Shown here one piece after another: positions 9,257-49,512 of a DNA stretch of 49,512 nt. The number at the start of each line of letters is the position of its first letter. Position 1 is the stretch's first letter. Source of the stretch: Candidatus Omnitrophota bacterium (GTDB lineage: Bacteria; Omnitrophota; Omnitrophia; Omnitrophales; Aquincolibacteriaceae); NCBI GenBank assembly GCA_028713205.1, contig JAQTOZ010000001.1, forward strand, positions 1 to 49,512, written 5' to 3'. The position numbers and the translations under genes were made by a program. A model generated the notes under the pieces. The model had not been told where the DNA came from and made no database searches. It saw only the letters and a program-made list of their open reading frames with translations.

Positions 9257-9362
9257 TCACGATCGCCCTAAGTTGTCCTTGGTGTTCGGAGCGGATGAAC
9301 GGATATTCTATCACGGCGGAGTTGCATGCAAAAACAAGCTTTTTTTGAAGTGTGGCGGCGAT

Positions 9363-12101: not shown

Positions 12102-12126
12102 GCTCAGCTCCTCAAAGGACCGGGGT

Positions 12127-13856: not shown

Positions 13857-13871
13857 GCACAAGGTGAAGTT

Positions 13872-15943: not shown

Positions 15944-15998
15944 TGGAAATATGTCCGGTATTCAAATTTTGCATCGGCTATGGAATGTCAGTCCGGGA

Positions 15999-16973: not shown

Positions 16974-16999
16974 GCGATCAAATCCTCATATCTTTTGTG

Positions 17000-19055: not shown

Positions 19056-19078
19056 CGGATTTTTGACGCGTCACGTGT

Positions 19079-23803: not shown

Positions 23804-23827
23804 AAAGGCCTGTCTGTGTGCGACGTC

Positions 23828-24244: not shown

Positions 24245-24264
24245 GGGATGGTATCTCCTCTGGG

Positions 24265-25677
24265 TTAAAAGTTAAATTCACGGAACCATTTGATGGTCCG
24301 GACAAGCCCTTCTTCGAGCGGATAACGGGGTTTGAATCCCGTGACCTTGGTCAGCTTGGAGATGTCCGGGCAACGTCTTTTGGGATCGGCGCTGGCATAC
24401 ACGGTGTGAGGCGGATCGATATTGACGACGTCGACCTTGTAAGGCATAAACTCCGCAACCATCGCTCCCAGATCCTTGACGGAAATTTCGGGTGCGGGAT
24501 TGCCGATATTGAAGGCCTCTCCGTTTGCCTTTGAAAAAAGCACTTTGAAAAGCGCTTCGAGCGCGTCATTGATGTAACAAAACGAGCGCGTGTTTTTCCC
24601 TTCGCCGTGAATCGGGAGGGGCTCTTTCCTTAAGGCATGTTCGATGAAATTGGGGAGCACCCGATAATCATCGGGACGGATGCCGGGTCCGTAGACGTTA
24701 AAAGGCCTCACCATTTTGACCGGTACGTTGAACACCTTCCAGTAAGTCATGCACATCGTTTCCCCGAAACGCTTGGATTCATCGTAACAGGAACGCGGTC
24801 CCAAAATGGAGACATTCCCATAGTAATCTTCTTTCGTGGGGACATGTTTCGGGTCGGGATCGCCGTAAACTTCGCTTGAACTTGTGAAAAGGAAACTTTT
24901 CACGTTTTTGATGCGCGCAAGTTCCAGCATGTTGCGTGTCCCCAGCGTTCCGACATCCATGGTCTCGATGGGATATTTGGTGTAATAGACCGGGGAAGCG
25001 ATGCCGGCGGCATGAATCAGATAGTCAATCGGCTCATCCGTGCTAAAGGGCTTGACCACGTCTGCACGGTAAAACGCCAGATTTTCATCCGAAATGACGC
25101 GTTGTTCATAGCCTGTGACAAAATTATCGAGGAGCAGGGCCTTGGCCTTGCGGCTGAGAACGTTCTCATTCAAATATTTGAGAAGGAAGACCATGTAGCG
25201 GCCGAGAAAACCAAAAGCACCCGTGATCAGGAAAGTCTTTCCCGCGAAGAGGTGATAATAACCGTCGAGGCTTTTGGCGAGTTCCTTGATATCTTCGGTG
25301 ATGACCTTGGAAGTGGCCAATTCGCCGAGGCTGTTTCGCTTGGGCGCCCCGGCCGTTTTCGGTTTTGCGGGGGATTTCACCGGAGATTGGAGCGGTTCGG
25401 CTTTGGGTTCCTGCTTTTGCGGTATTGCTACCGTGGAGGCTTGGCCCGGCTGTTGCTTCGCCAGCGCGGTTTGTACCGCTTTTAAATCATCATCCAGCTC
25501 ATCGATCAGTCCGAGGTTGATATAACTTTTGATGACTTGTTGATAACCCATATCGCCTTTTTTCTCGGCAACTTTGCGCAACTTTGAAATGGTCTCTTTC
25601 GGGATGCGCATCGAAATGAGTTTGGTCCCCGAACCTTTATCTTGTTTTGGATCTTCTGATTTTTTATTTTTGGCCAT
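24265..25677 (-). CDS. UDP-glucuronate decarboxylase-like extended SDR fused to an N-terminal ribbon-helix-helix (BrnA/CopG-like) domain
   Basis: Residues ~17-60 read KLISMRIPKETISKLRKVAEKKGDMGYQQVIKSYINLGL (RHH strand-helix-helix with GYQxxI motif). A Pro/Lys-rich linker follows, then the Rossmann motif ITGAFGFLGRY and YDESKRFGE (YxxxK) in a UXS-like pattern. AAGGAGG RBS upstream of ATG 25677. Confidence 0.8.
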   Translation of the reverse strand: MAKNKKSEDPKQDKGSGTKLISMRIPKETISKLRKVAEKKGDMGYQQVIKSYINLGLIDELDDDLKAVQTALAKQQPGQASTVAIPQKQEPKAEPLQSPVKSPAKPKTAGAPKRNSLGELATSKVITEDIKELAKSLDGYYHLFAGKTFLITGAFGFLGRYMVFLLKYLNENVLSRKAKALLLDNFVTGYEQRVISDENLAFYRADVVKPFSTDEPIDYLIHAAGIASPVYYTKYPIETMDVGTLGTRNMLELARIKNVKSFLFTSSSEVYGDPDPKHVPTKEDYYGNVSILGPRSCYDESKRFGETMCMTYWKVFNVPVKMVRPFNVYGPGIRPDDYRVLPNFIEHALRKEPLPIHGEGKNTRSFCYINDALEALFKVLFSKANGEAFNIGNPAPEISVKDLGAMVAEFMPYKVDVVNIDPPHTVYASADPKRRCPDISKLTKVTGFKPRYPLEEGLVRTIKWFREFNF

Positions 25678-27418: not shown

Positions 27419-29053
27419 TTAACTGATACTGCCGGAATAAGGAGATACCTTTTTGTTTTTGGCGTCTTCCTCGTCCTTGTTCTTCGCCTTTTCACTGACG
27501 GCGCATTCCGTCGTAATGAAAAGTCCGGCAATGCTGGAAGCGTTTTCGATCGCCGAGCGTACCACTTTGGCCGGATCAATCACGCCTTGTTTCACAAGGT
27601 CATCGAATTCGCCGGTCTCGGCGTTGTATCCGAAAGCGCCTTTGCCTTCCAAAACGGTTTTGACGATCACCGAACCGTCAACGCCCGCATTTTCCGCGAT
27701 CTTGCGGCAAGGTTCCTGAAGCGCGCGGCGCACAATCTGCGCGCCGGTGGCCTCATCGCCTTCGAGTTTGAGCTCATGGAGTGCGGCAATGGATCGTAAA
27801 TAAGCGACGCCGCCGCCGGGGACAATGCCTTCATCTGCGGCCGCGCGGGTCGCGTGAAGGGCATCTTCCATTCGAGCCTTCTTCTCTTTCATCTCGACTT
27901 CCGTGGCTGCTCCGACTTTAATGACGGCGACACCCCCCGAAAGTTTTGCCAGACGCTCTTGCAATTTTTCCTTATCGTATTCGGAATCAGATTTATCAAT
28001 CTGCGCCCGGATCTGATCGCAGCGTGCCTTGATGTCTTTTTGCGAACCTTCCCCGCTGATGATGGTGGTATTGTCTTTATCGATCACGATACGCTGGGCC
28101 TTTCCGAGAACGTTGACCTCCAAATTCTCGAGTTTGAGCCCGAGGTCTTCGGAGATGAACTTTCCTTTGGTGAGGATGGCAATATCATCCATCAGGGCCT
28201 TGCGGCGGTCACCGAATCCCGGTGCTTTGACCGCGGCGATCTGAAGGACACCGCGTATTTTATTGACGACCAACGTTGCCAACGCTTCGCCTTCGAGGTC
28301 CTCGGCGATTAACAGCAATGGTTTACCGAGGCGCGCGACTTTCTCAAGCAAAGGAACCAGTTCCTTGACCGCCGAGATCTTCTTTTCAAAAAGAAGAATG
28401 AACGGCTCTTTGAGAACGACTTCCATGCGTTCGGTGTCGGTGACAAAATAAGGCGAAATGTAACCACGGTCGAATTGCATCCCCTCCACGAAATCAAGCG
28501 TGGTTTTCGTGGTGTTGGATTCTTCCACGGTAATGACACCGTCTTTGCCGACCTTCTCGATGGCTTCGGCGAGCATTTTGCCGATGGTGGAATCTCCGTT
28601 GGCGCTGATCGTCCCGACGGCCTCGATCTCATGTTTGTCCTTCACGGGTTTCGCGAAGCCCTTCACGATCTCGACCACTTTGGCCGCGGCCTTGTCGATC
28701 CCGCGTTTGAGTGCCATCGGATTCGCGCCCGCCGTAACGTTTTTCATTCCCTCCGTCACGATCGCATGCGCGAGCACGGTGGCGGTGGTTGTCCCGTCGC
28801 CGGCTTGATCGGATGTTTTTTCGGCGACTTCGCGGACCATCTGAGCCCCCATATTTTCATACGGGTCCTTGAGGTCAACTTCCTTTGCGACGCTGACGCC
28901 GTCTTTGGTAATCGTCGGCGCTCCGAATTTGCGGTCAATGACGACATTGCGGCCGCGGGGTCCCAGAGTCACGGTGACCGCACGTGCCAGAATGTCGATG
29001 CCGCGTTTCAGCCGCCGGCGCGCCTCTTCTGAATAGGATATTTGTTTTGCCAT
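27419..29053 (-). CDS. groL: Chaperonin GroEL paralog 2 (no GGM tail)
   Basis: Full-length GroEL pattern ([12 protein letters not shown], etc.). ATG 29053 with AAGGAG RBS; the track start at 29059 is a TTG two codons upstream. The C-terminus [23 protein letters not shown] replaces the Gly-Gly-Met repeats. Confidence 0.95.
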
Positions 29054-29092
29054 AAGCAACTCCTTTATCTATGAATTTTAGGTCCGCCGGAT

Positions 29093-29433: not shown

Positions 29434-31104
<1,671 letters not shown>

Positions 31105-35186: not shown

Positions 35187-35215
35187 TTGACATGCATGCA
35201 TATGCCATATAAATT
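35187..35215 (+). promoter_or_regulatory. Candidate sigma-70-like promoter for the giant ORF
   Basis: Perfect TTGACA at 35187-35192, followed by TATAAA/ATAAAT/TAAATT candidates at 15-17 nt spacing in a very AT-rich stretch ~95-120 nt upstream of ATG 35308. Confidence 0.35.
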
Positions 35216-35307: not shown

Positions 35308-35397
35308 ATGACAAGATCGAAATATAACAAAATTCTAGCGTTCTTGTTAAGTATTACTCTCAGCTTCTTTTCTGTCCCCGTCTGTCCAGCAGGTGCA
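35308..35397 (+). other. Sec-type signal peptide of the giant protein
   Basis: MTRSKYNKILAFLLSITLSFFSVPVCPAGA / NVDD: a basic n-region, hydrophobic core, and small residues (A-G-A) before the likely cleavage site. Confidence 0.7.
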
Positions 35398-38300
35398 AAC
35401 GTTGACGACAGGGGATCCTTAAGTTCAGTACCCGGGAGTGCCCCCGTTCCCACAACGCCTATACTTCCGGGTGGATCCCCTGTTCCTCAAACGCCAGAAA
35501 GTCCCCAATTACCGGTTAGTGATGGAATGTTCTCAGAGCAATTCGGTGATTGGGGGACCCCTCAACCGATGCAAGATGAAGAAGACCTGAAAACTGAGGA
35601 AGAAAAACAGGAATTGAAAGAAGCCGTAGAAGAAAAGCAGCCCGCCGCGGAACTCGCGACAGAAGAAAAGGAAGAGGAGAAGAATTATACCGAGTCTGAG
35701 AGAACGGCGGAAGGTCGAGTCCAGTTCGGATCGGCGATTAACATGAATGACGCTACGTTTGAGGTAATTGATGTGTCGCCGGAGGGAATCGAAGAGATCA
35801 AAGAAAATCTGGAGGCATTCCGTTCCTATGAAGATGCCGAACAGGTTTTTGCTTGCGTCGATGACGGTGGCAGCATGGAATGTTTTTACGGCACGAGCGG
35901 CGAAGAGGAAAACGCGCATTTCCACCAAATGATCTCCGAGTATTTAAGCGATAAGACGACGCTGTTTGTGCTTCACAATCACCCATATGACAACGAGGGG
36001 TTGCCCACGCCCAGCGATACGGATTATCAACTCGCCGTCCAAGGGGATTTGTGGGAGGCGGTGGGCAATGTGAATGGCTGGGAAAAATACGGCCATGACG
36101 GAGATCAGGGAGAGATTGCCGATGAAACGATTATTGAAAGGCTCAAGGAACTGATGGCTGTTTACGGTCAGACGAAAGATCCTCTTGCGGCAAAAGAGAC
36201 ACGAAATGAACTCAACGGACTTTTGACTTATGTGGACCAATTCCGGGAGCTTCAGAAAACCCTGGGTGAAACGGAACCGGGAGTCGTTTACCGCGCGGCC
36301 GAGAAACCGGTGGCCCAAGATCAATACGTTACGATGAAGGAAGATGCGATTCAAACCGGACAGTTGACCGCGACGGGTTCCGGGATATTGACTTATTATT
36401 TGAGTCAGGGGCCGCAACACGGAACGGTCACGGTGGATCCTAACGGATCCTATGTGTATCAGCCGGACGCGAATTATAACGGCACCGATGCTTTTAGTTT
36501 CGTGGCGAAAAACAATTTGGGATTCGGGTCAACGATCGAAGATTTTAAAACCAATTTGTCCAATCCGAACGGTTTGGAATTTGACTACGAGCACGGCTGG
36601 GTTTATTGGTGCGAAACGGGGAGCGGATCAATCAAGCGGGCAAGAATCGACGGTACGGGGAGCGTGACGACCCTGGCGTCCGTAGGCGGTATTCCTGCGG
36701 ACCTCAAACTGGATCTGGCAAATGGGAAGATTTATTGGCGTGATACCGCCATGAAAGCGATACGGCGCATCAATATCGACGGAAGCGGCACGGCCGCAAC
36801 GGTCGTCGGCCCTTCGCAAATATCGGATATCCGTGAAATCCAGTTGGATGTACAAGGGGGCCGGATTTATTGGTCCGATTACGGCAGTTATAATGGAATA
36901 CGCTCCTGCAGATTAGACGGTACCGATGTTCGAACGATTTTGTCGGGCTTCAAAGCGTTTTCGTTTACCTTGGATGTCCCCAACGGAAAAATTTATTACC
37001 AAAAATTCACGCGCTGGGGCGATCCGATGCCCTTGATGCGGTCCAACCTGAACGGTACCGTATCGGAAACGGTATTGAGCACGATGCCGTCGTCTTCGGG
37101 CATGACGATCTCGGACGGATATATTTATTGGTCGGGCAGTTATGTGGATGACAACGCCGTGCAACGGGTCAAGTTAAGCTCTGCCAATCCTGCCAATATC
37201 GAAACGGTGGTGAGAAGCGTCATGGGATGTTTGGCCGACAGCCTTTGGCTGGATAGCCGGAACGGTTACCTGTATTGGACGGATACTCTCACCGGCAAGA
37301 TCAAACGTGTTTCTTTCGGTACGGTTTCGAATCCGGCAACGGTGACCATGAATATAGCTCCGGTCAATGATGCTCCGGTAGCGCGCGCCGATAACTATGC
37401 GGTCAATGAAGATGCCAATGGCGGGCTTGTGACAGGTTCGGCCAACGGCGTTCTGGCGAATGACACAAATCCGGACGGGCATGCGCTTGCGGTTCAGTTG
37501 GCTTCGGGCCCCTCCCACGGGACACTTCAATTGAATAGCGACGGTACTTTTACCTATGTCCCCAACACCCATTTCTACGGCACGGATACATTTCAGTATT
37601 ATGCGTCATATGAGGCATACGGTACGCCCCAGGATCTTACGAGGTGGTCATCAACGAGTGCCAATGATCTGGTTGTCGCGAATGGGAAAATGTATACCTT
37701 CGACGGACAAAACGGGTCCATTACCGTGGCCAATATCAATGGTTCAGGGAGAACGACCCTGATTTCTTCTTCGGCCTTGGGAGGTAAAGCCGTTTACAAC
37801 CTGGCGGTTGATCAAGTCAACGGCAAAATTTATTGGATCGATAGCAGCAATAAAATCAGGTGGGCGAATTTGGACGGTTCCGGTGTTGCGAATCTCCCGG
37901 TTACGATCTCCGCAACCAATATCTCGAAAGCGCAACTCAAAATCGATACGGTCAATCAGAAAATCTTGTGGACGAGCACCAATTATATTTACTGCGCGAA
38001 CCTGAACGGCACCGGTCAGAGAGCCCTCGGTTACACGCTCTCGCCGTATCCGATCGAGTCGTTGGCGATTGACGCACAAAATAACAAACTCTATTGGAGC
38101 GGACATTCCAATTTTCAAGATACATTCCCGGGGACTAATTTGTTCCGCGTGAACCTGAGCAATCTCTACAGCGGTACCGTGGTTGAGGAAGTGGTTGTGA
38201 AAAATGTTGAGGCGAAAAGCATCGAAATTGCCGGCGGCAAGCTTTATTACACGACTTGGGAAAATGGCACTCAATCCGGTAGTTCGGTCAAGCGTGTGGA

Positions 38301-41300
38301 CAGTCTTGCTGCGACCAATCTCCTGGATAGCGATACCGTTACGGTTGTTTCCCATGCGACGGGTGTTTCGGGCCAGCGGACGATCAAAGGGGACATTCAG
38401 GCGGCCAGTGACGGCACCGTCTATTGGCTCGAACAGGAAGCCGCGGGGTCGTCGCCGACTGTGATTCGGAAAGTTTCTTGTCCGGCCCGCACCGATCCGG
38501 CAACGGTTACCATTGATATAGCTCCGGTCAATGATGCGCCGGTTGCGACACCTCCCGCCGTGGGTGTGGTTCTTGCGGTCGGGACAAACATAACTCTTGG
38601 GGGAAGCGATGTGGATGGGGATATGCTTTCCTATGTGATTGTTGCCGGGCAGACGAGCGGGCGTACCGGCCATGGAACGTGGCAGCAATATGATCCTAGC
38701 GATTCAAGCAAGATCCGGTATGTCCCGGACGCCAATTATGAAGGCGCGGATTCTTTTACCTACAAGGTTTGGGACGGCAAAGCGTATTCGGCGGTTGTGA
38801 CGGTGAATTTCACGGTCGATGCCGTATGTCCCGTCATTCGAATCACAAGTTCGAATGAGATCAACCAACCGGGGACCTATGTTCTTACATTTATGGTGGA
38901 CGGGGTTGCGGAAAGTGCCAGCGGTGATGCACTCAGAGCCTTGCGCTTACCGCCGGGTAATTTGACGGAGGGATATAACGATTTTCAGATTGTGCGCCGT
39001 GACGTGGCCGGCAATGAAACGAGATTAACGTTCAGAATAACAGTGGATACGGTACCGCCGACGGTGACGGTGAGCGGGATTGTCAATGATTCGGTGGTGA
39101 ATTCAAGAGATGCGACGCTTACGATGGGCGGAGACGGTGTCGTTGCCTACAAGATCATCAAGTTCGATACCTGGGACTGGTCAGACGGCGGGCTGGTGAG
39201 TCAGCCTTATTATTTTCGCAATCTTTCCGAAGGCCGGCATTCGGTTTCGGTGATCGGCAAAGATGCAATCGGGAATTGGCAGACAACGCCGACCGTCATC
39301 ACGTGGACGGTGGATACGGTACCGCCGACGGTGACGGTAAGCGGGATTGTCAATAATTCGGTGGTGAATTCAAAGGATGCGACGATCACGATGGGCGGTG
39401 TCGGGGTCGTGGCATATAAAATTAAATGGAATGATTGGCCGGATTATCTCGATGGCGGATTGGTGTCTCAGCCATATCATTTTTATAATCTCCCCGAAGG
39501 CAGGAATACGATTTCGGTCATAGGAAAAGACGCCGCGGGGAACTGGCAGACAACGCCGACGGTTATCAATTGGACGGTGGATACGGTACCGCCGACGGCT
39601 GTGATCAGCGGAGCACCTCCGGCACAGACAACCGTTACCGACGCGACGCTGACGATCAGCGGTGATCAGGTCACCGCTTATAAATTTAAGTTGGATAGCG
39701 GAAATTATTCCGCCGAGACGGCGGCAGGGACTCCGATTACTTTGCATGGCCTCTCAGAAGGTCAGCATGCTGTCAGCGTTCTTGCCCGGGATGCAGCCGG
39801 TAACTGGCAGGCGGCCCCGACACAAGTGTCCTGGACGATTTTACCGCGGGAACGGGTCGTTCAAACTTTACCGTCCGTCGGATCCGATGGCGGGGTTCAG
39901 AGAGTGATTGTCGCCGAAATTTATGATGCAGCGGGAGCTAAAACCTATTCTGCGAGAGTGCAAAAACAAAATGCGGACGGAAGTTATCAAACCCTGCGTG
40001 AGTATGCGATCGCCAGTTACGGAGCGATCCAAGTGGTTGATACGACCTGGCAAAAGACGAGCTATTTTGTCGCAACGGCGACCGACGGCCGCAACTTGAC
40101 CTTCGGCTATTTGGAACCGAAACCGTCCGGGACAAAAAATTCATTTGAAGATGTGGATGGCCGCATGATTTACCGGAGCGGCCAGATTACGATCGGCTAT
40201 GCCGGCGGCGAGAATTTTATGGCCGATCTATCGGGTGCGGTTCCGTATGCAAAGATAACCCATTCAAACGGTCAGAGCGGCAGTCAATACCGGGATGTCG
40301 CCGTATACCATTACACGCAAACAGCTCCGGCCGGAAAGAAGCTGTTGTTTCAATATCAAGACGGGCCTGCCTCGAGCAATTGGAGTCCGATCTACAACGT
40401 CTATGGAATTCTTGAGCTTTCCGCGAAGGCTGATCCGTTGGTGGGAGATGAAAATATTCCCGTGACCGGCAAGATCACGGTGACGGATCCGGATGGTGAC
40501 AATATTACCTACACCCTTTTGTCGAATCCTGCGCACGGTACCGTGACGTTTGATGCGGCGGGGAATTACACCTTTAACCCCACAGCACACTGGTATGGTT
40601 CGGACACATTTCAGGTGAGGGTGAGTGACGGGAAGGCGACCTTGACGGTCAAGATCCCGGTGACGATTAATATGAAGGCGAATCCTCCGGCGATTGTCAC
40701 GATCCCGAATCAGAATGTCAACGAAGGAAGCACGCTCAATGTCAATATCAACGCAAGTTCGCAGGAACCGGGCGCCAGCGGGCTGAACGTCAGTGCGGTG
40801 ATGGTCAACGCCAGCGGCCAGGAAGTGGTTTTGCCGAATTGGATGCAATTGGTGACGAATGCGGACGGGACAAAGAAATTAGCGGTGACGCCCGGCCATG
40901 ATGCGTCGGGGACTTATAAACTTCGCGTAAAAGCGCAGGATACGGCGGGACAAGCGCAAGTCGATTTTACGTTGACGATTAACAATGTTGCCGTGCCGCC
41001 GGTGATGACGCCGGTTACGGAGAAGAATACCAACGAAGGGACCGAGTTATCCATCGGATTGACGGCCCTGTCCCGTGATCCCAATGCGGGTGATTTGATA
41101 TTCAATGCGGTATTATTGGACGCCAACGGGCAGGAAATTCCGTTGCCCGATTGGCTGAATTTTTCGAAGCTTGCCTCCCGCAATCCCCGAACCGGGGAGA
41201 TCACATGGTATTTGATCGCAGCTCCCGGTCATGATGCGTCGGGGACATACCGGATCCGTGCGAAAGCGACCGATTTGGCCGGAGAAGCACAGACCGATTT

Positions 41301-44300
41301 TACACTGACTATTAATAATGTAGCCGTTCCGCCGGTGATGACGCCGATTCCCGATCAGAATATAAGTGAAGGCACTACGTTGGATGTGAATATCAGCGCG
41401 CAATCGCAAGATCCCGGTGCCGGAGAGCTGACCGTGAGTGCGGTGATGTTAAATGAGCAAGGTCAGGAAGTGGCTTTGCCGGGCTGGATGCAAGTGTCTT
41501 CGAATGCGGATGGGAGCTGGGAATTAGTCGTCAGTCCGGGGCATAACGATGCGGGGTCCTATTCCATTCGCGTGAAAGCAACGGATTTGGCCGGTGAAGC
41601 GCAAACAGAGTTTGCGTTGACGGTCAATGATGTCGTCAACACTCCCGTTGCGGACCCTCTGACGGTGACGATCAACGAAGACTCTCCTTACACGGGTCAA
41701 TTGACGGGCACCGGAGAGAACCTCACTTTCCATCTTGCCCAGCCGCCGGCGCATGGAACCGTCGTGCTGAATTTGGACGGGACGTTTACCTATACGCCGG
41801 CCGGTGATTACAGCGGCGATGATACGTTTACCTATTATGCGGAAACCGGCTCGGTGGAGGGCCCCGAAAATTTTGCGGATGCTTTTACGAATCCGGCACA
41901 TCCGATTGTGAATCCTGCCGACGGATTTACTTATTGGGTGGAGAACGGTCAGGCCCTGATGCGAAAGAAAAGCGACGGGACCGGAAGCGTTGAAGAAGTG
42001 TTCCGTTTCCCTTACGGTGCTTACCAGGAAATGTCGGAGATTACACTGGATACCGGGCGGGGAAGAATTTATTACACGGACAATACCGGCTATGGCATGG
42101 GCATCTTAAAATGGCTCGACCTGAGTGACAACAGCCTCCATGTGTTGTCGACTCAGAGCGGATTGAAATCGCAGCTGACCTATGACGCGGCCAACAATCA
42201 GGTCTTATGGTACGACGCGGGCGGTGGCCGCATTCGCGGAATTAGCGTGGATGATCCGGACGGTCCTGTGAGGACCATTATTGATTGGTCTTACAATGCC
42301 GGTGTGGGACATACCTATGCGATCGGCGGCGGGAAAATTTATTGGCAAACGGTCGGCGATGAAAATGTGAAGCTCAAATGCGCGAATTTGACGGGGCCCT
42401 TCCCGATACCGGATTCGCAGCATACGGTTTTATTGAATTCCGTACATTTTGCCAGCAGCATGGCGGTGGATGCCGAAGGAGGGAAGGTTTATTGGATGCA
42501 CGGACACGATCAATCCATCCAGCGTTTAACGCTCAACGGCGGAAATGTGGAAACGGTGGTCCCGAGTCTGAGCCCCTATTCCTATACCATGCTGAATCTT
42601 TCATTTGATGAAACGAACGGCGATCTTTATTGGGCGAATACCACGGGGCATCCGACCATTCAACGGGCCGGAACCATTCCTCCGTCTGCTCCGGCCGCGG
42701 CAACGTTCCATGTGACACAGGTGCCCGATGCGCCGGTGATCACGCCGGTGGATCCGCAAACCGTCGATGAAAATCAGACGTTGCAATTTACGGTCCATGC
42801 CAGCGATCCTGATCAAGGGGACGTCCTGAGTTTCTCGGTCGAGCATATGCCGGACGGAGCGATGTTTGATCCGGCGACCGGGGTTTTTACCTGGCAACCC
42901 GGGGCCGATGCCGGCCGTACGGATCCGTATATCGTTCATTTGATCGTGACGGACCAAGATGGGCTTATCAGTACGATCGATGTGCGCATTACGGTCAATA
43001 ATGTGAACCAAACGCCTGTTGCCGATGCGAAACAGGTCGAAGGAACGGAAGATGTTTCTCAGGTGATTGTGCTATCGGGGACGGATGATGACGGTGATGA
43101 TTTGACATATGAGATCGTAGGAGGTCCCGGGCATGGGACGCTGAGCTGTGACGGAAATCGTTGCACGTACACCCCGGCGGCAAATTATAACGGGCATGAT
43201 TCTTTTACTTACCGTGTTTACGACGGTACGGAATATTCCGAAATTGCGGCGGTGGATATCGATCTGGTCGCAGTCAATGATGCGCCGGTGGCGCGGGATG
43301 CCGAGGGCACGGCGGACGAGGATAACGAATTCGTTTACCGGTTGAGTGATTTGATCAGTGATATTGATACGGCGATGAGCGGTTTGAGAATTTTCGGCGC
43401 GAGTCAGCCTATGCACGGCGGCATCATCATCGATTACGATAACGGCGAGTTTATTTATGTGCCGGATGAAAACTGGCATGGCACCGAGGTTTTTCAGTAT
43501 ATCGTCACGGACGGAGAGAAGACCTCGCAGATCAAACAAATTGTCATTCATGTGGCGAGTGTCAATGACACCCCGGAGGCAAACGCCGTGAGTGCGGAGA
43601 CAAATGAAGATGCTGTCTTGACGGGGCAGTTGACGGCAGAGGATGTCGATGGTGACGCTTTGACCTATTCATTGGTAGGTCAATCCGAGCATGGGACGGT
43701 GGTGGTCAATGCGGACGGCAGTTACGCGTATACGCCTGCAGCAAATTACAACGGGACGGATAGTTTCACGTTTAAGGTCAATGACGGAACGGTTGATTCC
43801 GAGGCGGTCACGGTGTCGCTCACGATCAAGTCCGTCAATGATGTCCCTGCGGGGAACCCGATGGATGCCGAGACGGACGAAGATGGGCAAGTCACGGGTC
43901 AGCTGACGGCGAGCGATCCTGAAGGGGATGCATTGACGTATTCTTTGGTGGGGCAGGCGGCCCATGGGACGGTGGTGGTCAATGCGGACGGCAGTTACAC
44001 GTATACGCCCGCAGCCAATTACAATGGGACGGACTTTTTTGCGTTTATCGTCAATGACGGTAAAGCCAATTCGGAGCCGGTAACTGTGTCGTTGACCGTG
44101 AAATCGGTCAATGATGCCCCTGTGGCGGATGCCGTCAATGAAGCGACCGATGAAGACGAAGCGATCACGGGGCAATTGACCGCGACGGACATTGATGAAG
44201 ACACTCTTACCTATCTGTTAGTCGCGCAGGCCGGGCATGGGACGGTGGTGATTCATCCGGACGGCAGTTACACCTACACGCCGGTAACCGATTTCAGCGG

Positions 44301-47300
44301 GGCGGATAGCTTCACGTTTAAGGTCAATGACGGTAAGACGGATTCGGCCGAAGTGACGGTCCATATCCGGATCGATGCGGTCAATGATGCGCCGGTTGTG
44401 CAGGACCGCGAGGTAACGATCGGTGAAGATGGGGATGTCTTCTTTGAACTTAGTACGCTTGTTTCGGATGTGGACAGCGCTGCCGGGGATTTCATTTATC
44501 TTATGGCCAAAGGGCCGGAGCATGGCGGTATCGCATGGGACACGGAAACCGGAAGTATTGTCTATGTCCCCGATGCGGACTGGAACGGGACAGATAGTTT
44601 TACATTTTATGTGTCCGATGGGGATAAAATTTCAAGGGAAGCACGATTTACGGTCAAAATCGATGCGGTCAATGATGCGCCGGTAGCCGATGGGGGCAGC
44701 GCCGAAACGGATGAAGATGCGGTGTTGACGGGCCAACTGACCGCGAGTGATGTTGAAGGCGATGCCTTGACGTATTCTTTGGTAGGGCAGGCGGCGCATG
44801 GGACGGTGGTGGTCAATGCGGACGGCAGTTACACGTATACGCCGGTAACAAATTTCAACGGGACGGATAGTTTCACGTTTAAGGTCAATGACGGAACGGT
44901 TGATTCCGAAGCGGTCACGGTATCGCTCACGATCAAGTCGGTTAACGATGCTCCGGTGATGACGCCGATTGAAGATCAGGAAGTGGATGAAAACGGGACG
45001 GTGCGTTTTACCGTGGAGGCCCAGGATGAGGACGGAAGCGCATTGACGCTTTCGGCGCTGGATATGCCTGAAGGTGCGGCATTTGATTTTGCAACGGGCG
45101 TGTTTAGCTGGAAGCCCGGGTATGAACAGGCGGGTACTTATACCGTCCGGTTCAGAGTGACGGACGGTGAATTGGCGGCTGATATTGATGTCAACATTAC
45201 GGTGAATAATGTGAACCGTGCTCCGGTGATCACGCCGGTGGATCCTCAGGTTGTGGATGAAAACTCGGACCTTGATTTTACGGTGAGTGCGAACGATCCC
45301 GACGGCGGGGCATTGACACTCTCAGCGTTTGATTTGCCTGAAGGTGCGACGTTTGATTCTGCGACGGGCGTGTTTAGCTGGAAGCCCGGTTACAATCAAG
45401 CCGGAACTTATACGGTGAAGTTCAGAGTTACAGACGGGGATTTAACGGATGAAATCTCAGTTGAGATCACAGTCAATAATGTGAACCGGCCTCCGGTGAT
45501 TACGCCGATTGAAGATCAGGAAGTGGATGAAAACGGGACGGTGAGATTTACCGTGGAAGCCCAGGATGAGGACGGAAGCGCATTGACGCTTTCGGCGCTG
45601 GATATGCCTGAGGGTGCGGCGTTTGATTTTGCAACGGGCGTGTTTAGCTGGAAGCCCGGGTATGAACAGGCGGGTACTTATACCGTCCGGTTCAGAGTGA
45701 CGGACGGTGAATTGGCGGCTGAGATGAATGTCAACATTACGGTGAATAATGTGAATCGTCCCCCGGTGATTACACCGATTGAAGATCAGGAAGTCAGTGA
45801 GAATAGTCCTGTGACATTTACGGTGTCGGGGACAGATCCCGACCAGGGCACGCAGCTGACGTTCTCGGCGCTTGATTTGCCGGAAGGCGCAACATTTGAT
45901 TCTGCGACGGGCGTATTCAACTGGACGCCGGGTTTTGAGGCAGCGGGAGAATACACACTGACCTTCAAGATCAGCGATGGCGAAGCGGAAGTGACGGAAA
46001 CAGTCAAGATCACGGTCGAGAATGTCAACCGGATACCGGTGGTCGGTACGCAGCAAGTGGAAGGCGCAGAGGATACCGTACAGTCCATTGTGTTATCGGG
46101 AACGGACAGCGACGGGGATACGTTGACCTATGAAATCGTCGGAAATCCGGAGCATGGGACGCTCAGTTGCGACGGGAACCGTTGCACCTACACGCCTGCG
46201 GCAAATTACAACGGTCATGATTCGTTTACATTCCGGGCCTTCGACGGTACGGATTATTCCGAGCCCGCAGCAATTGATTTGAATCTGACGGCAGTCAACG
46301 ATGCGCCTGTGGCGAACGACGTGGAAGTTTCGGTGAATGAAGATACGGATTTGATTTATCAACTCAGCGACATGGTCGGCGACATCGATACGGAGATGGC
46401 GGGACTGCATTTGTATTTTGCGAACCAACCGGAGCATGGCGGGATCGTCGTGGATTATGACTCGGGCGAGTTTATTTATGTTCCGGATGCGGACTGGATC
46501 GGGACGGAAGTGATCCGGTATGTGGCTTCGGACGGCGATAAAACGTCGGAGGAACGGCAGATCGTTATTCATGTCGCGAATGTCAACGATGCGCCCGTGA
46601 TCACGCCGATACCGGATCAGACGGTGGCTGAGGACGGCACGTTGACGTTTACGGTCGGCGTGTCCGATTCCGATGAGGGTGATCCGCTGACATTATCGAT
46701 TGAGGGTTTGCCGGCAGGAGCAACTTTTGATGTCGGGACAAAGACTTTCAGCTGGCAGCCCGGCTATGATCAAGCAGGGACATATACGGTTAGGATTCGC
46801 GCGACGGACGGAGATTTGACCGATGAGATTGACGTCAATATCACGGTCAATAATGTGAACCGTGCACCGGTGATTACGCCGGTTGATCCGCAAGTGGTGG
46901 ATGAAGACTCAGACCTTAATTTTACGGTCAGCGCAAATGATCCCGACGGCGGGGTGTTGACACTCTCAGCGCTTGATTTGCCGGAAGGCGCGGCCTTTGA
47001 TCCCGCGACGGGAGTATTCAGCTGGAAACCCGGATACAATCAGGCCGGCAGTCACACCGTCCGGTTTCAAGTCACCGACGGTGATTTGACGAGTGAGATC
47101 TCGGTTGAGATCACGGTCCATAATGTGAACCGGCCGCCTGAAGCCCAAGCGCAGCAAGTGGAAGGGGCAGAGGATGCTCCTCAAGTGATTGTGTTATCGG
47201 GGAGCGATAACGATCAGGATCACCTGACCTATGAAATCGTCGACGGACCGGAGCATGGGGCCATAAACTGTGATGGCAATCGTTGCACCTACACCCCGGC

Positions 47301-49512
47301 AACGAATTATAACGGGCCTGATTCATTTACATTCCGGGTTTATGACGGTGAAGATTATTCGGAGGCTGCGACGATCGATTTGGACCTGGTCGCGATCAAT
47401 GACGCACCGGTGGCACAAGATGTGGAAGCGACAATGGACGAGGATACGGATTTCATTTTTTCGTTGAGCGACATGGTCGGCGACATCGATACGGAGATGG
47501 CGGGACTGCATTTGTATTTTGCGAACCAACCGGAGCATGGCGGGATCATCGTGGACTATGATTCGGGCGAGTTCATTTATGTTCCGGATGCGGATTGGAA
47601 CGGGACGGAAGTGATCCGGTATGTGGTTTCGGACGGCGATAAAACGTCGGAGGAGCGGCAGATCGTTATTCATGTCGCGAATGTCAACGATGCCCCGGAG
47701 GCGGATGCCGTCAGTGCGGAGACGAATGAAGATGCGGTATTGACGGGGCAGTTGACGGGAACCGATGCGGATGGAAATGCATTGTCGTACGCATTGGTGG
47801 GCCAAGCGGCGCATGGGGTGGTGGTCATGAATGCGGACGGAAGCTATACGTATACTCCGGCGGCAAATTTCAACGGGACGGACAGTTTTACGTTTAAGGT
47901 CAATGACGGGACGGTCGATTCCGGGACGGTCACGGTTTCTCTGACGATCCAATCCGTGAACGATGCTCCGGTGATGACACCCATTGAGGACCGGGAAGTG
48001 AACGAAGACGGAACGGTGAGTTTTACCGTCGAAGCCGATGACATCGATGAAGATTCGTTATCATTATCGGCGCTTGATTTGCCTGCGGGTGCGACGTTTG
48101 ATTCTGAGACAGGTGTGTTTAGCTGGAAGCCCGGCTATGATCAGGCAGGGACCTACGCCCTCCGATTCAAAGTAAACGACGGCCATTTGAATGTGACCCA
48201 GGATGTGATCATTACGGTCAATAATGTGAACCGTGCACCGGTGATCACGCCAGTTGATCCGCAAGTGGTGGATGAAGACTCAGCCCTTAATTTTACGGTA
48301 AGCGCCAATGATCCCGACGGCGGGGCGTTGACACTCTCAGCGCTTGATTTGCCGGAAGGCGCGGCCTTTGATCCGGCGACGGGCGTGTTTAGCTGGAAGC
48401 CCGGATACAATCAAGCCGGAACTTATACGGTGAAATTCCGTGTGACCGATGGTGATTTAACGGGTGAGATCTCGGTTGAGATTACGGTCCATAATGTGAA
48501 CCGCGCACCCGTGATTACGCCGGTTGACCCTCAGATGGTGGACGAAGACTCGGACCTTAATTTTACGGTGAGCGTGAACGATCCCGATGGCGGGGCGCTG
48601 ACCCTATCTGCGCTTGATTTGCCGGAAGGCGCGGCCTTTGATCCGGCGACGGGCGTGTTTAGCTGGAAGCCCGGGTATGATCAGGCCGGAACTTATACGG
48701 TGAAGTTCCGCGTCACGGACGGTGATTTAACGGGTGAGCTTGAAGTCGAGATCACGGTCAATAATGTGAATCGTGTTCCGGTTGCTCACGATATTGAAGT
48801 GACCGTTAACGAAGATCAAACTCTGGCGTTTGATTTACCGGAAGGGTTTGATTTGGACGGGGATCAATTAATGTATTTGCTTGTCAGCGGTCCCGGACAC
48901 GGCGGGATTACCTTTGCGGAACCGGAGAATGAACCTTATACGCGAAAGATGCTCTATATTCCTGATGAAAATTTTGAAGGAACGGATACGTTCACTTTCG
49001 AGATTTATGACGGTCAAGAGTTATCGAATACGGCAACGGTGACAATCAGGGTCAATGGGCTGAACGATGCCCCCATGATTCAGCCGGTTGAACCGCAAAC
49101 AGTTCATGAGGACAGTGACTTACATTTTGCGATTCACACAACCGATCCCGACCTGGGAGATCTTTTAACCTTGTCCGCGCTTGATTTGCCGGATGGCGCG
49201 GCCTTTGATCCGGCGACGGGCGTGTTTAGCTGGAAGCCCGGGTATGAACAGTCCGGAACTTATACGGTGAAGTTTCGAGTCACGGATGGTGATTTGACGG
49301 ATGAAATTGAAGTTGAGATCACGGTCAATAATGTGAACCGTGCACCGGTGATCACGCCGGTTGATCCGCAAGTGGTGGATGAAGACTCAGACCTTAATTT
49401 TACGGTGAGCGCGAATGATCCCGACGGAGGGGCGTTGACACTCTCAGCGCTTGATTTGCCGGAAGGCGCGGCCTTTGATCCGGCGACGGGCGTGTTCGGC
49501 TGGAAGCCCGGT
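35308..49512 (+). CDS. Giant secreted multi-domain surface/adhesin-like protein, 3'-partial (>=4735 codons, no stop in window)
   Basis: Frame +1 coincides with every 60-nt line start. It has an in-frame TGA at 35284-35286, ATG at 35308, and no stop through 49512 in my line-by-line translation. The ORF track contains no frame +1 ORF anywhere in 35.3-49.5 kb, as expected for one ORF lacking a stop. The translation gives coherent domains (signal peptide, JAB-like, YWTD blades, VNDAP- and He_PIG-type modules). Confidence 0.88.
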   Translation, partial: MTRSKYNKILAFLLSITLSFFSVPVCPAGANVDDRGSLSSVPGSAPVPTTPILPGGSPVPQTPESPQLPVSDGMFSEQFGDWGTPQPMQDEEDLKTEEEKQELKEAVEEKQPAAELATEEKEEEKNYTESERTAEGRVQFGSAINMNDATFEVIDVSPEGIEEIKENLEAFRSYEDAEQVFACVDDGGSMECFYGTSGEEENAHFHQMISEYLSDKTTLFVLHNHPYDNEGLPTPSDTDYQLAVQGDLWEAVGNVNGWEKYGHDGDQGEIADETIIERLKELMAVYGQTKDPLAAKETRNELNGLLTYVDQFRELQKTLGETEPGVVYRAAEKPVAQDQYVTMKEDAIQTGQLTATGSGILTYYLSQGPQHGTVTVDPNGSYVYQPDANYNGTDAFSFVAKNNLGFGSTIEDFKTNLSNPNGLEFDYEHGWVYWCETGSGSIKRARIDGTGSVTTLASVGGIPADLKLDLANGKIYWRDTAMKAIRRINIDGSGTAATVVGPSQISDIREIQLDVQGGRIYWSDYGSYNGIRSCRLDGTDVRTILSGFKAFSFTLDVPNGKIYYQKFTRWGDPMPLMRSNLNGTVSETVLSTMPSSSGMTISDGYIYWSGSYVDDNAVQRVKLSSANPANIETVVRSVMGCLADSLWLDSRNGYLYWTDTLTGKIKRVSFGTVSNPATVTMNIAPVNDAPVARADNYAVNEDANGGLVTGSANGVLANDTNPDGHALAVQLASGPSHGTLQLNSDGTFTYVPNTHFYGTDTFQYYASYEAYGTPQDLTRWSSTSANDLVVANGKMYTFDGQNGSITVANINGSGRTTLISSSALGGKAVYNLAVDQVNGKIYWIDSSNKIRWANLDGSGVANLPVTISATNISKAQLKIDTVNQKILWTSTNYIYCANLNGTGQRALGYTLSPYPIESLAIDAQNNKLYWSGHSNFQDTFPGTNLFRVNLSNLYSGTVVEEVVVKNVEAKSIEIAGGKLYYTTWENGTQSGSSVKRVDSLAATNLLDSDTVTVVSHATGVSGQRTIKGDIQAASDGTVYWLEQEAAGSSPTVIRKVSCPARTDPATVTIDIAPVNDAPVATPPAVGVVLAVGTNITLGGSDVDGDMLSYVIVAGQTSGRTGHGTWQQYDPSDSSKIRYVPDANYEGADSFTYKVWDGKAYSAVVTVNFTVDAVCPVIRITSSNEINQPGTYVLTFMVDGVAESASGDALRALRLPPGNLTEGYNDFQIVRRDVAGNETRLTFRITVDTVPPTVTVSGIVNDSVVNSRDATLTMGGDGVVAYKIIKFDTWDWSDGGLVSQPYYFRNLSEGRHSVSVIGKDAIGNWQTTPTVITWTVDTVPPTVTVSGIVNNSVVNSKDATITMGGVGVVAYKIKWNDWPDYLDGGLVSQPYHFYNLPEGRNTISVIGKDAAGNWQTTPTVINWTVDTVPPTAVISGAPPAQTTVTDATLTISGDQVTAYKFKLDSGNYSAETAAGTPITLHGLSEGQHAVSVLARDAAGNWQAAPTQVSWTILPRERVVQTLPSVGSDGGVQRVIVAEIYDAAGAKTYSARVQKQNADGSYQTLREYAIASYGAIQVVDTTWQKTSYFVATATDGRNLTFGYLEPKPSGTKNSFEDVDGRMIYRSGQITIGYAGGENFMADLSGAVPYAKITHSNGQSGSQYRDVAVYHYTQTAPAGKKLLFQYQDGPASSNWSPIYNVYGILELSAKADPLVGDENIPVTGKITVTDPDGDNITYTLLSNPAHGTVTFDAAGNYTFNPTAHWYGSDTFQVRVSDGKATLTVKIPVTINMKANPPAIVTIPNQNVNEGSTLNVNINASSQEPGASGLNVSAVMVNASGQEVVLPNWMQLVTNADGTKKLAVTPGHDASGTYKLRVKAQDTAGQAQVDFTLTINNVAVPPVMTPVTEKNTNEGTELSIGLTALSRDPNAGDLIFNAVLLDANGQEIPLPDWLNFSKLASRNPRTGEITWYLIAAPGHDASGTYRIRAKATDLAGEAQTDFTLTINNVAVPPVMTPIPDQNISEGTTLDVNISAQSQDPGAGELTVSAVMLNEQGQEVALPGWMQVSSNADGSWELVVSPGHNDAGSYSIRVKATDLAGEAQTEFALTVNDVVNTPVADPLTVTINEDSPYTGQLTGTGENLTFHLAQPPAHGTVVLNLDGTFTYTPAGDYSGDDTFTYYAETGSVEGPENFADAFTNPAHPIVNPADGFTYWVENGQALMRKKSDGTGSVEEVFRFPYGAYQEMSEITLDTGRGRIYYTDNTGYGMGILKWLDLSDNSLHVLSTQSGLKSQLTYDAANNQVLWYDAGGGRIRGISVDDPDGPVRTIIDWSYNAGVGHTYAIGGGKIYWQTVGDENVKLKCANLTGPFPIPDSQHTVLLNSVHFASSMAVDAEGGKVYWMHGHDQSIQRLTLNGGNVETVVPSLSPYSYTMLNLSFDETNGDLYWANTTGHPTIQRAGTIPPSAPAAATFHVTQVPDAPVITPVDPQTVDENQTLQFTVHASDPDQGDVLSFSVEHMPDGAMFDPATGVFTWQPGADAGRTDPYIVHLIVTDQDGLISTIDVRITVNNVNQTPVADAKQVEGTEDVSQVIVLSGTDDDGDDLTYEIVGGPGHGTLSCDGNRCTYTPAANYNGHDSFTYRVYDGTEYSEIAAVDIDLVAVNDAPVARDAEGTADEDNEFVYRLSDLISDIDTAMSGLRIFGASQPMHGGIIIDYDNGEFIYVPDENWHGTEVFQYIVTDGEKTSQIKQIVIHVASVNDTPEANAVSAETNEDAVLTGQLTAEDVDGDALTYSLVGQSEHGTVVVNADGSYAYTPAANYNGTDSFTFKVNDGTVDSEAVTVSLTIKSVNDVPAGNPMDAETDEDGQVTGQLTASDPEGDALTYSLVGQAAHGTVVVNADGSYTYTPAANYNGTDFFAFIVNDGKANSEPVTVSLTVKSVNDAPVADAVNEATDEDEAITGQLTATDIDEDTLTYLLVAQAGHGTVVIHPDGSYTYTPVTDFSGADSFTFKVNDGKTDSAEVTVHIRIDAVNDAPVVQDREVTIGEDGDVFFELSTLVSDVDSAAGDFIYLMAKGPEHGGIAWDTETGSIVYVPDADWNGTDSFTFYVSDGDKISREARFTVKIDAVNDAPVADGGSAETDEDAVLTGQLTASDVEGDALTYSLVGQAAHGTVVVNADGSYTYTPVTNFNGTDSFTFKVNDGTVDSEAVTVSLTIKSVNDAPVMTPIEDQEVDENGTVRFTVEAQDEDGSALTLSALDMPEGAAFDFATGVFSWKPGYEQAGTYTVRFRVTDGELAADIDVNITVNNVNRAPVITPVDPQVVDENSDLDFTVSANDPDGGALTLSAFDLPEGATFDSATGVFSWKPGYNQAGTYTVKFRVTDGDLTDEISVEITVNNVNRPPVITPIEDQEVDENGTVRFTVEAQDEDGSALTLSALDMPEGAAFDFATGVFSWKPGYEQAGTYTVRFRVTDGELAAEMNVNITVNNVNRPPVITPIEDQEVSENSPVTFTVSGTDPDQGTQLTFSALDLPEGATFDSATGVFNWTPGFEAAGEYTLTFKISDGEAEVTETVKITVENVNRIPVVGTQQVEGAEDTVQSIVLSGTDSDGDTLTYEIVGNPEHGTLSCDGNRCTYTPAANYNGHDSFTFRAFDGTDYSEPAAIDLNLTAVNDAPVANDVEVSVNEDTDLIYQLSDMVGDIDTEMAGLHLYFANQPEHGGIVVDYDSGEFIYVPDADWIGTEVIRYVASDGDKTSEERQIVIHVANVNDAPVITPIPDQTVAEDGTLTFTVGVSDSDEGDPLTLSIEGLPAGATFDVGTKTFSWQPGYDQAGTYTVRIRATDGDLTDEIDVNITVNNVNRAPVITPVDPQVVDEDSDLNFTVSANDPDGGVLTLSALDLPEGAAFDPATGVFSWKPGYNQAGSHTVRFQVTDGDLTSEISVEITVHNVNRPPEAQAQQVEGAEDAPQVIVLSGSDNDQDHLTYEIVDGPEHGAINCDGNRCTYTPATNYNGPDSFTFRVYDGEDYSEAATIDLDLVAINDAPVAQDVEATMDEDTDFIFSLSDMVGDIDTEMAGLHLYFANQPEHGGIIVDYDSGEFIYVPDADWNGTEVIRYVVSDGDKTSEERQIVIHVANVNDAPEADAVSAETNEDAVLTGQLTGTDADGNALSYALVGQAAHGVVVMNADGSYTYTPAANFNGTDSFTFKVNDGTVDSGTVTVSLTIQSVNDAPVMTPIEDREVNEDGTVSFTVEADDIDEDSLSLSALDLPAGATFDSETGVFSWKPGYDQAGTYALRFKVNDGHLNVTQDVIITVNNVNRAPVITPVDPQVVDEDSALNFTVSANDPDGGALTLSALDLPEGAAFDPATGVFSWKPGYNQAGTYTVKFRVTDGDLTGEISVEITVHNVNRAPVITPVDPQMVDEDSDLNFTVSVNDPDGGALTLSALDLPEGAAFDPATGVFSWKPGYDQAGTYTVKFRVTDGDLTGELEVEITVNNVNRVPVAHDIEVTVNEDQTLAFDLPEGFDLDGDQLMYLLVSGPGHGGITFAEPENEPYTRKMLYIPDENFEGTDTFTFEIYDGQELSNTATVTIRVNGLNDAPMIQPVEPQTVHEDSDLHFAIHTTDPDLGDLLTLSALDLPDGAAFDPATGVFSWKPGYEQSGTYTVKFRVTDGDLTDEIEVEITVNNVNRAPVITPVDPQVVDEDSDLNFTVSANDPDGGALTLSALDLPEGAAFDPATGVFGWKPG
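35701..36180 (+). other. RadC-like JAB/MPN metallopeptidase-like domain inside the giant protein
   Basis: ...EQVFACVDDGGSMECFYGTSGEEENAHFHQMISEYLSDKTTLFVLHNHPYDNEGLPTPSDTDYQLAV... This compares with the RadC/JAMM signature HNHPSGxxxPSxxD (HxH...S..D). Confidence 0.6.
36565..37320 (+). repeat. YWTD (LDL-receptor class B type) six-bladed beta-propeller 1
   Basis: Six ~40-aa blades centred on GWVYWCE, GKIYWRD, GRIYWSD, GKIYYQK, GYIYWSG, GYLYWTD. Each is followed by an x-I-x-R-x-x-L/I-D/N-G-S/T strand. Confidence 0.65.
37660..38478 (+). repeat. YWTD-type six-bladed beta-propeller 2
   Basis: Blades centred on GKMYTFD, GKIYWID, QKILWTS, NKLYWSG, GKLYYTT, GTVYWLE. Confidence 0.6.
39043..39840 (+). 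repeat. Three tandem 267-bp (89-aa) Ig-like repeats starting VDTVPPT
   Basis: gtggatacggtaccgccgacgg recurs at 39043, 39310 and 39577, an exact 267-bp period. Each unit ends ...GNWQTTPTVI(T/N)WTVDT. Confidence 0.8.
40684..41640 (+). repeat. Three tandem He_PIG/dystroglycan-type cadherin-like modules (105-112 aa variant)
   Basis: Units PPAIVTIPNQNVNEGSTL..., PPVMTPVTEKNTNEGTEL..., PPVMTPIPDQNISEGTTL... Each contains GQE(V/I)xLPxW(M/L) and ends GHDASGTYxxRxKAxDxAGxAQxxFTLT(I/V)N. Confidence 0.7.
41905..42672 (+). repeat. YWTD-type six-bladed beta-propeller 3
   Basis: Blades centred on GFTYWVE, GRIYYTD, NQVLWYD, GKIYWQT, GKVYWMH, GDLYWAN. Confidence 0.6.
42720..49512 (+). repeat. Array of ~25 tandem 90-95-aa modules: ~12 He_PIG-type (NVNRxPVITP...) and ~13 VNDAP-type Ig/cadherin-like ('tandem-95'/Big_9-like)
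   Basis: Module boundaries are marked by recurring ...ITVNNVNR(A/P)PVITP... and ...(K/D)(S/A)VNDAP(V/E)A... every ~270-285 bp. Order read from translation: A, B x7, A x4, B x2, A x2, B x3, A x3, B, A, A(partial). Confidence 0.8.

Follow-up and report, generated by a model that had tools for sequence, protein, structure and literature searches.

A very divergent JAB/MPN-like domain behind a predicted signal peptide at the N-terminus of a giant Omnitrophota protein

A JAB-like head module in a giant protein

Here, we have analyzed a stretch of 49,512 nucleotides from a Candidatus Omnitrophota bacterium (assembly GCA_028713205.1, contig JAQTOZ010000001.1, positions 1 to 49,512 of the forward strand; the whole stretch is hereafter called the window), and in particular the first part of a giant open reading frame (ORF) that lies at its 3' end. 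Residues ~127-334 of the predicted product, which we refer to as the head module, very probably form a genuine domain of the JAB superfamily. Our results support the view that this module represents a putative, previously unannotated and very divergent JAB/MPN clade. Its nearest known group would be the RadC-like JAB domains, because of its profile match to them and because its motif reads HNHP where JAMM enzymes specific for ubiquitin-like proteins (Ubl) have H[ST]HP. A preliminary description of this DNA, made from the letters alone, had proposed that a giant protein carries, behind an N-terminal signal peptide, a RadC-like JAB metallopeptidase-type domain. The divergent JAB domain and the export signal were both supported by the present analysis, whereas the peptidase chemistry, the location at the far end of a stalk and the suggested roles as a 'warhead' or autoprocessing module are retained as predictions. 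The coordinates of all features are collected in Table 1.

The core of the predicted zinc site is contained in residues 223-239 (HNHPYDNEGLPTPSDTD). When the DNA was translated again, the earlier reading of this segment and its codon positions (HNH at 35974-35982, Ser236 at 36013-36015 and Asp239 at 36022-36024) proved exact, and so did the 3-residue insertion noticed earlier relative to the RadC signature HNHPSGxxxPSxxD, the His-to-Ser spacing being 10 instead of 7. We also estimated how many chance occurrences of such motifs the window would give when translated in all six frames. A loose JAMM pattern (H.H.{5,11}S..D) was found three times against ~1.9 expected, and it is uninformative because about two chance matches are expected per window. 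On the other hand, the stricter pattern HNHP.{5,10}PS..D, for which 2.7e-4 matches were expected in the window, was found once, at the head module. An HNH-endonuclease reading of the letters 'HNH' was considered and rejected: the three residues are consecutive and stand in an alpha/beta context, that is, they form the HxH of a JAMM motif and not a beta-beta-alpha-Me motif.

Table 1 Features of the giant ORF, its head module and the surrounding window
Feature	Position	Strand	Details
Giant ORF	35308..49512	+	Head module, then Big_9/cadherin-like, YWTD (LDL-receptor class B), He_PIG and PKD repeats
Sec signal peptide (predicted)	35308..35397	+	Residues 1-30: MTRSKYNK, ILAFLLSITLSFFSVPV, CPAGA, followed by N
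Linker, low-complexity, Pro-rich then Glu/Lys-rich	35398..35685	+	Residues 31-126; 17 Glu and 13 Pro in 96 residues
Head module	35686..36309	+	Residues 127-334; JAB core and helical hairpin; common to P0002, P0003, P0004 and P0006
JAB/MPN-like predicted catalytic core	35797..36111	+	Residues 164-268; portion aligning with RadC-like JAB profiles
Glu178, predicted general base of the JAMM motif	35839..35841	+	Invariant in 5 of 5; aligned with the RadC Glu
His223-Asn224-His225, predicted zinc ligands (HxH)	35974..35982	+	Invariant in the window and three intact homologues
Ser236-Asp-Thr-Asp239 (SxxD)	36013..36024	+	Asp239 is the predicted third zinc ligand, invariant in 5 of 5
W-E-x-x-G-x(4)-W-x-x-Y beta-hairpin, family-specific	36052..36090	+	W249, E250, G253, W258 and Y261 invariant
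Two long helices after the JAB core, family-specific	36121..36273	+	Residues 272-322; model helices H146-160 and H166-196 (domain numbering)
Module-end motif G-[VIL]-x-x-R-[AS]-[AGD]	36280..36300	+	Residues 325-331; G325 and R329 invariant
Two tandem full-length GroEL (Cpn60) genes	27419-29059, 29434-31089	-	
C-methyltransferase and sugar epimerase/dehydratase genes	21783-25677		Beyond the glycan island
Glycan-biosynthesis island	9363-19873		Four glycosyltransferases, DegT-type aminotransferase, three radical-SAM genes (one with a B12-binding domain)
Pair of adjacent genes	6741-9256	-	Transglutaminase-like domain fused to 7TM_transglut module; 'sugar-transfer associated' ATP-grasp protein
M54 (archaemetzincin-like) peptidase gene	2662-3609		

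Conservation and distribution of the head module

All known relatives of the head module came from an exhaustive HMMER search of 1.84 billion representative proteins, which recovered the window protein and four others (E-values from 1.8e-17 to 2.5e-4). A word-indexed protein search with either the domain or the family alignment as query returned no relatives. P0002 (1461 residues, E 1.8e-17) is the sole relative with a named source, Candidatus Omnitrophota, and the accession numbers suggest that it comes from the same metagenome-assembled genome (MAG) as the window protein and hence is a paralogue. The remaining three are P0003 (3773 residues), P0004 (1572 residues) and P0006 (849 residues). 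The fifth match listed by HMMER, P0005, was discarded as an unrelated repeat protein. Further members were sought in GTDB genomes, JGI metagenome contigs, IMG/VR and plasmids, with chance matches only: a DNA pattern for the W-E-x-x-G...W segment had 13 matches in the JGI metagenome contigs, none of them with HNH upstream, and tblastn against plasmids gave nothing relevant. A second contig that carries the window's genes (L002) encodes an identical protein sequence and adds no variation. The head-module family is very rare in current data.

The four relatives have the same N-terminal layout, consisting of a signal peptide, a low-complexity linker, the JAB core and two long helices. Similarity ends after the helices, and the bodies beyond the module are mutually unrelated: P0002 and P0006 carry novel beta-rich repeats; P0003 has a long unannotated stretch, cadherin-like domains and EF-hand/dockerin-like loops; and P0004 shows matches to PKD, RHS-repeat and 'Bflower' models, all weak and sub-threshold. 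The head thus stays constant while the bodies vary. Inspection of the complete proteins P0003 and P0004 by eye showed no obvious membrane anchor at the C-terminus, and weak dockerin/EF-hand-like loops near the C-terminus of P0003 give a hint that is compatible with C-terminal attachment.

Within the four-sequence domain alignment, identity to the window protein was 31-33% and 27 of 204 profile columns were invariant, including Glu178, His223, Asn224, His225 and Asp239. The chance that four positions named in advance would all be invariant is ~2.5e-4 (hypergeometric estimate). The conservation anticipated in the preliminary description was observed for the upstream Glu, the HxH and the Asp in all three intact homologues, and for the Ser in two of them. 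Because this catalytic constellation appears to be under purifying selection, the head module is probably an active metal-dependent hydrolase. It should be noted that P0006, which lies on a JGI contig of 2812 bases, has HKD in place of HNH, and that its segment AVYVTSGDVDKVRAHELLAVHLLEN (strand 3 and helix 2) is shifted behind the first C-terminal helix. This protein may be either a rearranged inactive copy or the product of a chimeric assembly.

Profile and structure comparison with RadC-like JAB domains

As a reference for RadC-like JAB domains, we ran a degenerate DNA pattern for HNHPSG...PS..D against IMG/VR, which gave 117 domains, or 92 at <60% identity. This motif scan replaced a locus search with a YicR alignment, which had keyed on the helix-hairpin-helix (HhH) region and returned two close YicR loci only. 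Comparison of the family profile with the 92 domains by hhalign gave a probability of 96.5% and a score of 59.6 over 100 columns (template 25-144 of 148), in a register that aligned the Glu, a conserved Gly, HNHP and PSxxD. When the reference profile was built from enterobacterial YicR only, the probability was 90.1% (E 1.6e-6, 73 columns). Column-shuffled queries scored at most 21. When the motif was kept and the flanks were shuffled, the score was 44.6 +/- 3.2 with a maximum of 52.8, and none of 100 such queries reached 59.6. The motif supplies most of the profile signal, and the remaining columns contribute significantly to it in the right register. In the hhalign register, the family-specific W-E hairpin (model strands E123-128 and E131-135) replaces the RadC strands 'DHiIi...y.Sf'.

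A structure predicted by AlphaFold2 with the four-sequence alignment was of medium confidence (predicted template modeling score (pTM) 0.73; mean predicted local distance difference test score (pLDDT) 69); the single-sequence model (pLDDT 52) was too poor for use. The order of elements in the model is b-a-b-b-a-b[HNH]-loop-[SxxD]a-b-b-b followed by two long helices, with HNH at the end of predicted strand E91-98 and Asp239 at the beginning of predicted helix H111-116. The part before the two helices fits the element order of the JAB/MPN fold. A Foldseek search of BFVD placed two proteins annotated as 'RadC-like JAB domain containing protein' at ranks 2 and 4 (prob 0.99 and 0.96), and p25 of Xanthomonas phage Xop411, with the best target template modeling (TM) score of 0.54, at rank 9. 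Xop411 p25 has a sub-threshold match to DUF4329, a Pfam family that partly overlaps Tox-JAB-2, and its sequence similarity to the head module was not significant. Among PDB entries, rank 1 was EMC8, which we take to be MPN-like, and rank 3 was RadC (2qlc).

Start of the giant ORF and export signal

The plus-strand ORF starts with an ATG at 35308, just 3' of an in-frame stop at 35284, and stays stop-free to base 49512, so that the protein has at least 4735 residues and its C-terminus lies beyond the window. Different starts have been used for this gene. The deposited NCBI model (P0001/P0127) begins at Met88 (ATG 35569) and therefore leaves out both the signal peptide and the greater part of the linker, and an alternative gene call on a Logan contig begins at the TTG of codon 13. 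ATG 35308 (Met1) is favored here because a signal peptide is kept in all homologues and because a sigma-70-like promoter match is located at 35187-35215. The predicted signal peptide has the basic n-region MTRSKYNK, an h-region (residues 9-23) that is the most hydrophobic of all 15-residue stretches in the 4735 residues, and, ahead of Asn31, the motif A-G-A. All four homologues likewise have signal peptides, in which the -3 and -1 residues are small and K8, A11 and P24 are invariant. Since the protein would be made with a predicted cleavable signal peptide, the head module would work outside the cytoplasm.

The linker between signal peptide and head module differs in length between homologues. 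At its start in the window protein (35398-35500) we observed an imperfect Pro-rich internal duplication (GSAPVPTTPILPG / GSPVPQTPESPQLP), an insertion that is not present in the four homologues.

Comparison with known JAB and Omnitrophota systems

RadC-like JAB domains (PF04002; E. coli YicR; PDB 2qlc) have the elements Glu...G...HNHP...PSxxD in the same order as the head module, and they were both its best weak match in Pfam and NCBIfam and among its top matches in the fold search. Of the JAB/MPN-type models in these two libraries, RadC and Toxin-JAB1 were the only ones to match the head region, both weakly, which speaks for the assignment. Compared with RadC, the head module is without 'SG' after HNHP, its loop before PSxxD is three residues longer, the 'DH' strand motif has become 'WE', and helix 3 is ~12 residues shorter. 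The context is different as well: RadC proteins are small and cytoplasmic, mostly with an N-terminal HhH domain, whereas the head module belongs to a predicted exported protein of >4700 residues, and no HhH domain was found in the giant ORF.

The preliminary description had regarded JAB domains as normally small and cytoplasmic, a view that needs to be qualified in that exported JAB domains have precedent in the toxins Tox-JAB-1 and Tox-JAB-2, which are secreted C-terminal toxin domains (PMC3482391). Like the head module, the toxin JAB domains (Zhang et al. 2012, PMC3482391) are divergent members that leave the cytoplasm on large repeat proteins (RHS) and carry the E, HxH, S and D motifs, and further points of likeness are the weak Toxin-JAB1 match and the Foldseek match to Xop411 p25. 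However, a toxin JAB domain is a variable C-terminal tip with a downstream immunity gene, whereas the head module is N-terminal and constant and has no evident immunity gene. Tox-JAB-1 (PF15659) in particular follows RHS repeats, has an NxxxE motif and an adjacent gene for an Imm65 lipoprotein, and comes from Bacteroidetes, the head module from Omnitrophota; the NxxxE motif was present in two of the five head-module members. The head module falls short of the features that define RadC proper, and likewise of those that define Tox-JAB-1.

Within the phylum itself, West-Roberts et al. (2023; bioRxiv 10.1101/2023.11.21.568195) described giant Omnitrophota proteins in which C39 and S8 peptidase domains lie near the signal peptide, and proposed that these domains serve in self-processing or in the cleavage of other substrates. 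The head module resembles these domains in phylum, in being a putative N-terminal hydrolase beside a signal peptide and in the roles that could be proposed for it. In contrast, C39 and S8 are cysteine and serine peptidases with a fold unrelated to that of the metal-dependent JAB domains. A JAB domain is mentioned neither in that work (bioRxiv 10.1101/2023.11.21.568195) nor in a 2026 survey of Omnitrophota genomes.

The Ubl-specific JAMM enzymes (Rpn11, CSN5, AMSH, Mec+/QbsD and Cap3 of the cyclic-oligonucleotide-based anti-phage signaling system, CBASS) belong to the same superfamily and follow the same E, HxH, S, D logic. They are cytoplasmic proteins with H[ST]HP and with Ubl, E1 or E2 partners, whereas the head module has HNHP and no such genes nearby, and gave no match to the Pfam JAB and Prok-JAB models up to E 10. 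MPN domains with C-terminal helices recur in Ubl-specific JAMM complexes. A link to Ubl conjugation was considered for the head module and rejected, as there are no E1, E2 or Ubl genes in the window.

Proposed function and alternative explanations

On the basis of these observations, we propose that the giant protein would be exported via its Sec signal peptide and that the head module would fold outside the cytoplasm behind the acidic linker. The JAB core and its C-terminal helical hairpin would constitute a head with which several large adhesin-like proteins of Omnitrophota, unrelated beyond it, begin, and that may come to lie at the distal end of the protein if the latter is displayed on the cell surface. 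A zinc-bound water, activated by Glu178, would then hydrolyze an amide bond, either peptide or isopeptide, of a substrate outside the cytoplasm. As this substrate we prefer an envelope component of the cell that the giant protein binds. Such a substrate fits the attachment or predation role proposed for the giant ORFs of these ultra-small bacteria (PMC10066038; bioRxiv 10.1101/2023.11.21.568195). We hold this explanation as a whole, including its trans-acting amide-bond hydrolase, with moderate confidence. A bolder version, which we consider unlikely, would be an extracellular JAB isopeptidase at the tip of an adhesin, cutting cross-links in the envelope of a prey or host (peptidoglycan, pseudomurein or S-layer anchors), or else a self-processing JAB domain. 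If true, contact-dependent predation or attachment would have gained a factor of a new enzymatic class, and a role outside the cytoplasm would be demonstrated for the first time for a JAB domain other than a toxin; in the self-processing variant, it would be the first self-cutting JAB domain, with the G-x-x-x-R-[AS] boundary as its site.

A number of observations weigh against this proposal at one or another of its steps. The assignment to the JAB superfamily found no match above cut-off in curated libraries: the RadC models PF04002 of Pfam (12.8 bits versus a cut-off of 22.1, E 0.1), NF000642 of NCBIfam (13.2 versus 180, E 0.05) and TIGR00608 (11.8 versus 133.85) as well as PF15659, Toxin-JAB1 (12.7 bits versus 21, E 0.18), were all sub-threshold. 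Sequence searches of the PDB, with the single sequence and with the family profile, retrieved no JAB-related entry. The family profile was built on four sequences, and the RadC reference was chosen by its motif, so that motif columns are overweighted in the comparison; with nine motif columns masked, the hhalign score fell to 16.3, within the range of the shuffled queries, although the register was the same. The Foldseek matches were marginal, with none below E 1e-3 (1e-3 to 0.35) and TM-scores of 0.3-0.5 for a medium-confidence model. At the level of the motif, P0004 has Gly at the position of Ser236, and the members differ in the distance from His to Ser (10, 10, 6 and 7, the canonical value being 7). 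As for localization, the predicted Sec signal peptide would take the protein only as far as the periplasm of what is probably a diderm, which falls short of surface display and of the proposed orientation. Finally, the chemistry itself is in question. A nuclease activity was inferred for the RadC clade by Iyer et al. (2011, PMC3239186) and extended to secreted toxin JAB domains by Zhang et al. (2012, PMC3482391), and the label 'metallopeptidase' is insecure for the RadC-like clade because both types have been argued to be nucleases. With regard to the superfamily, the JAB profile match expected in the preliminary description was absent from the curated libraries, but this is outweighed by the profile-profile comparison and by the conservation of individual residues.

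The sub-threshold scores in all curated libraries, the non-significant motif-masked comparison and the marginal fold matches could also mean that the motif is fortuitous or vestigial and that the module is a binding, plug or oligomerization domain, acting for example through its helical hairpin. Non-catalytic MPN domains are indeed common in eukaryotic complexes. We nevertheless regard a non-catalytic or non-JAB module as highly improbable, given that all four residues predicted to bind the metal or to act in catalysis have stayed invariant while overall identity is ~30%, that the flanks add a significant profile score in register, and that sequence and structure searches converge on a single superfamily. 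A nuclease-type effector, whose metal site would hydrolyze phosphodiester bonds and attack extracellular or target-cell nucleic acid, would agree with the motif (HNHP) and the profile, by both of which the closest clade is the RadC-like one with its inferred nuclease activity, as well as with the toxin JAB domains, to which that inference was extended and to which the head module shows a weak match (Toxin-JAB1, E 0.18). However, the nuclease activity of RadC is itself inferred, and JAB domains of polymorphic toxins are C-terminal with an adjacent immunity gene, whereas the head module is N-terminal and has housekeeping genes as its neighbors on the other strand (tsaB, alr, birA, coaX and two groEL genes). 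The 640-bp region upstream of the giant ORF contains no called gene, neither a secretion system nor an immunity-like gene was found in the window, and there is no evident translocation device that would bring an N-terminal domain into the cytoplasm of a target cell. A nuclease is, in our opinion, quite improbable.

Maturation in cis offers a different account of the same hydrolase: the JAB domain would cut its own chain at the module-end motif or remove the acidic linker, thereby releasing or activating the adhesin body. A constant head on differing bodies is what would be expected of a function in trafficking or processing rather than of a target-specific one. The module-end motif, with its invariant G325 and R329, lies in a stretch predicted to be disordered, exactly at the module boundary where the five homologues cease to align, and it may be a candidate processing site. 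The pattern of a hydrophobic residue, Arg and two small residues resembles the LRGG-type tails cleaved by JAB peptidases. Processing of Omnitrophota giant proteins has moreover been proposed for the N-terminal C39 and S8 domains (bioRxiv 10.1101/2023.11.21.568195). However, no JAB domain is known to cut itself in this manner, and RadC-clade domains have been reported to be without the tunnel for a Ubl tail (PMC3482391). Taken together, a cis-acting role appears doubtful, and hydrolysis of an amide bond in trans is the reading that we prefer.

The giant proteins of Omnitrophota are largely unannotated, and an apparently competent enzyme domain of ~200 residues, as judged from its predicted active site, would provide an expressible handle for their biochemistry. 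Prokaryotic JAB domains have been considered intracellular except for the C-terminal toxins; an N-terminal, constant head that is exported via Sec would widen the known use of the fold. Moreover, an exported RadC-like member without a DNA-repair context would offer a different test of peptidase versus nuclease activity for this clade. At present, the family is missed by Pfam and NCBIfam, and the gene model starting at Met88 is without the signal peptide, so that the databases show a cytoplasmic-looking protein. By exact look-up, the NCBI product name is 'Ig-like domain-containing protein, partial', from Candidatus Omnitrophota MAGs.

Body of the giant protein and genomic context

The body of the giant ORF behind the head module contains Big_9/cadherin-like domains, two YWTD propeller regions and several dozen repeats of the Big_9, He_PIG and PKD types. 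The two YWTD/LDL-receptor class B propeller-like regions are located at ~36500-38550 (residues ~400-1080), where weak SGL matches were also obtained. They alternate with Big_9/cadherin-like domains right after the head module and are an unusual element for a repeat adhesin of bacteria.

The window gave no matches when scanned for Rfam families and tRNAs, and its other genes of note are listed in Table 1. We also recorded the surroundings of two of the relatives. P0003 and P0004 both adjoin efp in their own contigs. The coordinates recorded for these two loci are 561-9422 and 10001-14719 on L138 and 2283-13604 on L139. P0003 is preceded by two tandem lgt genes. Upstream of P0004 lies another giant gene, which encodes 2953 residues with a signal peptide and a faint dockerin match, is without the JAB head, and is separated from P0004 by a CopG-antitoxin-like gene.

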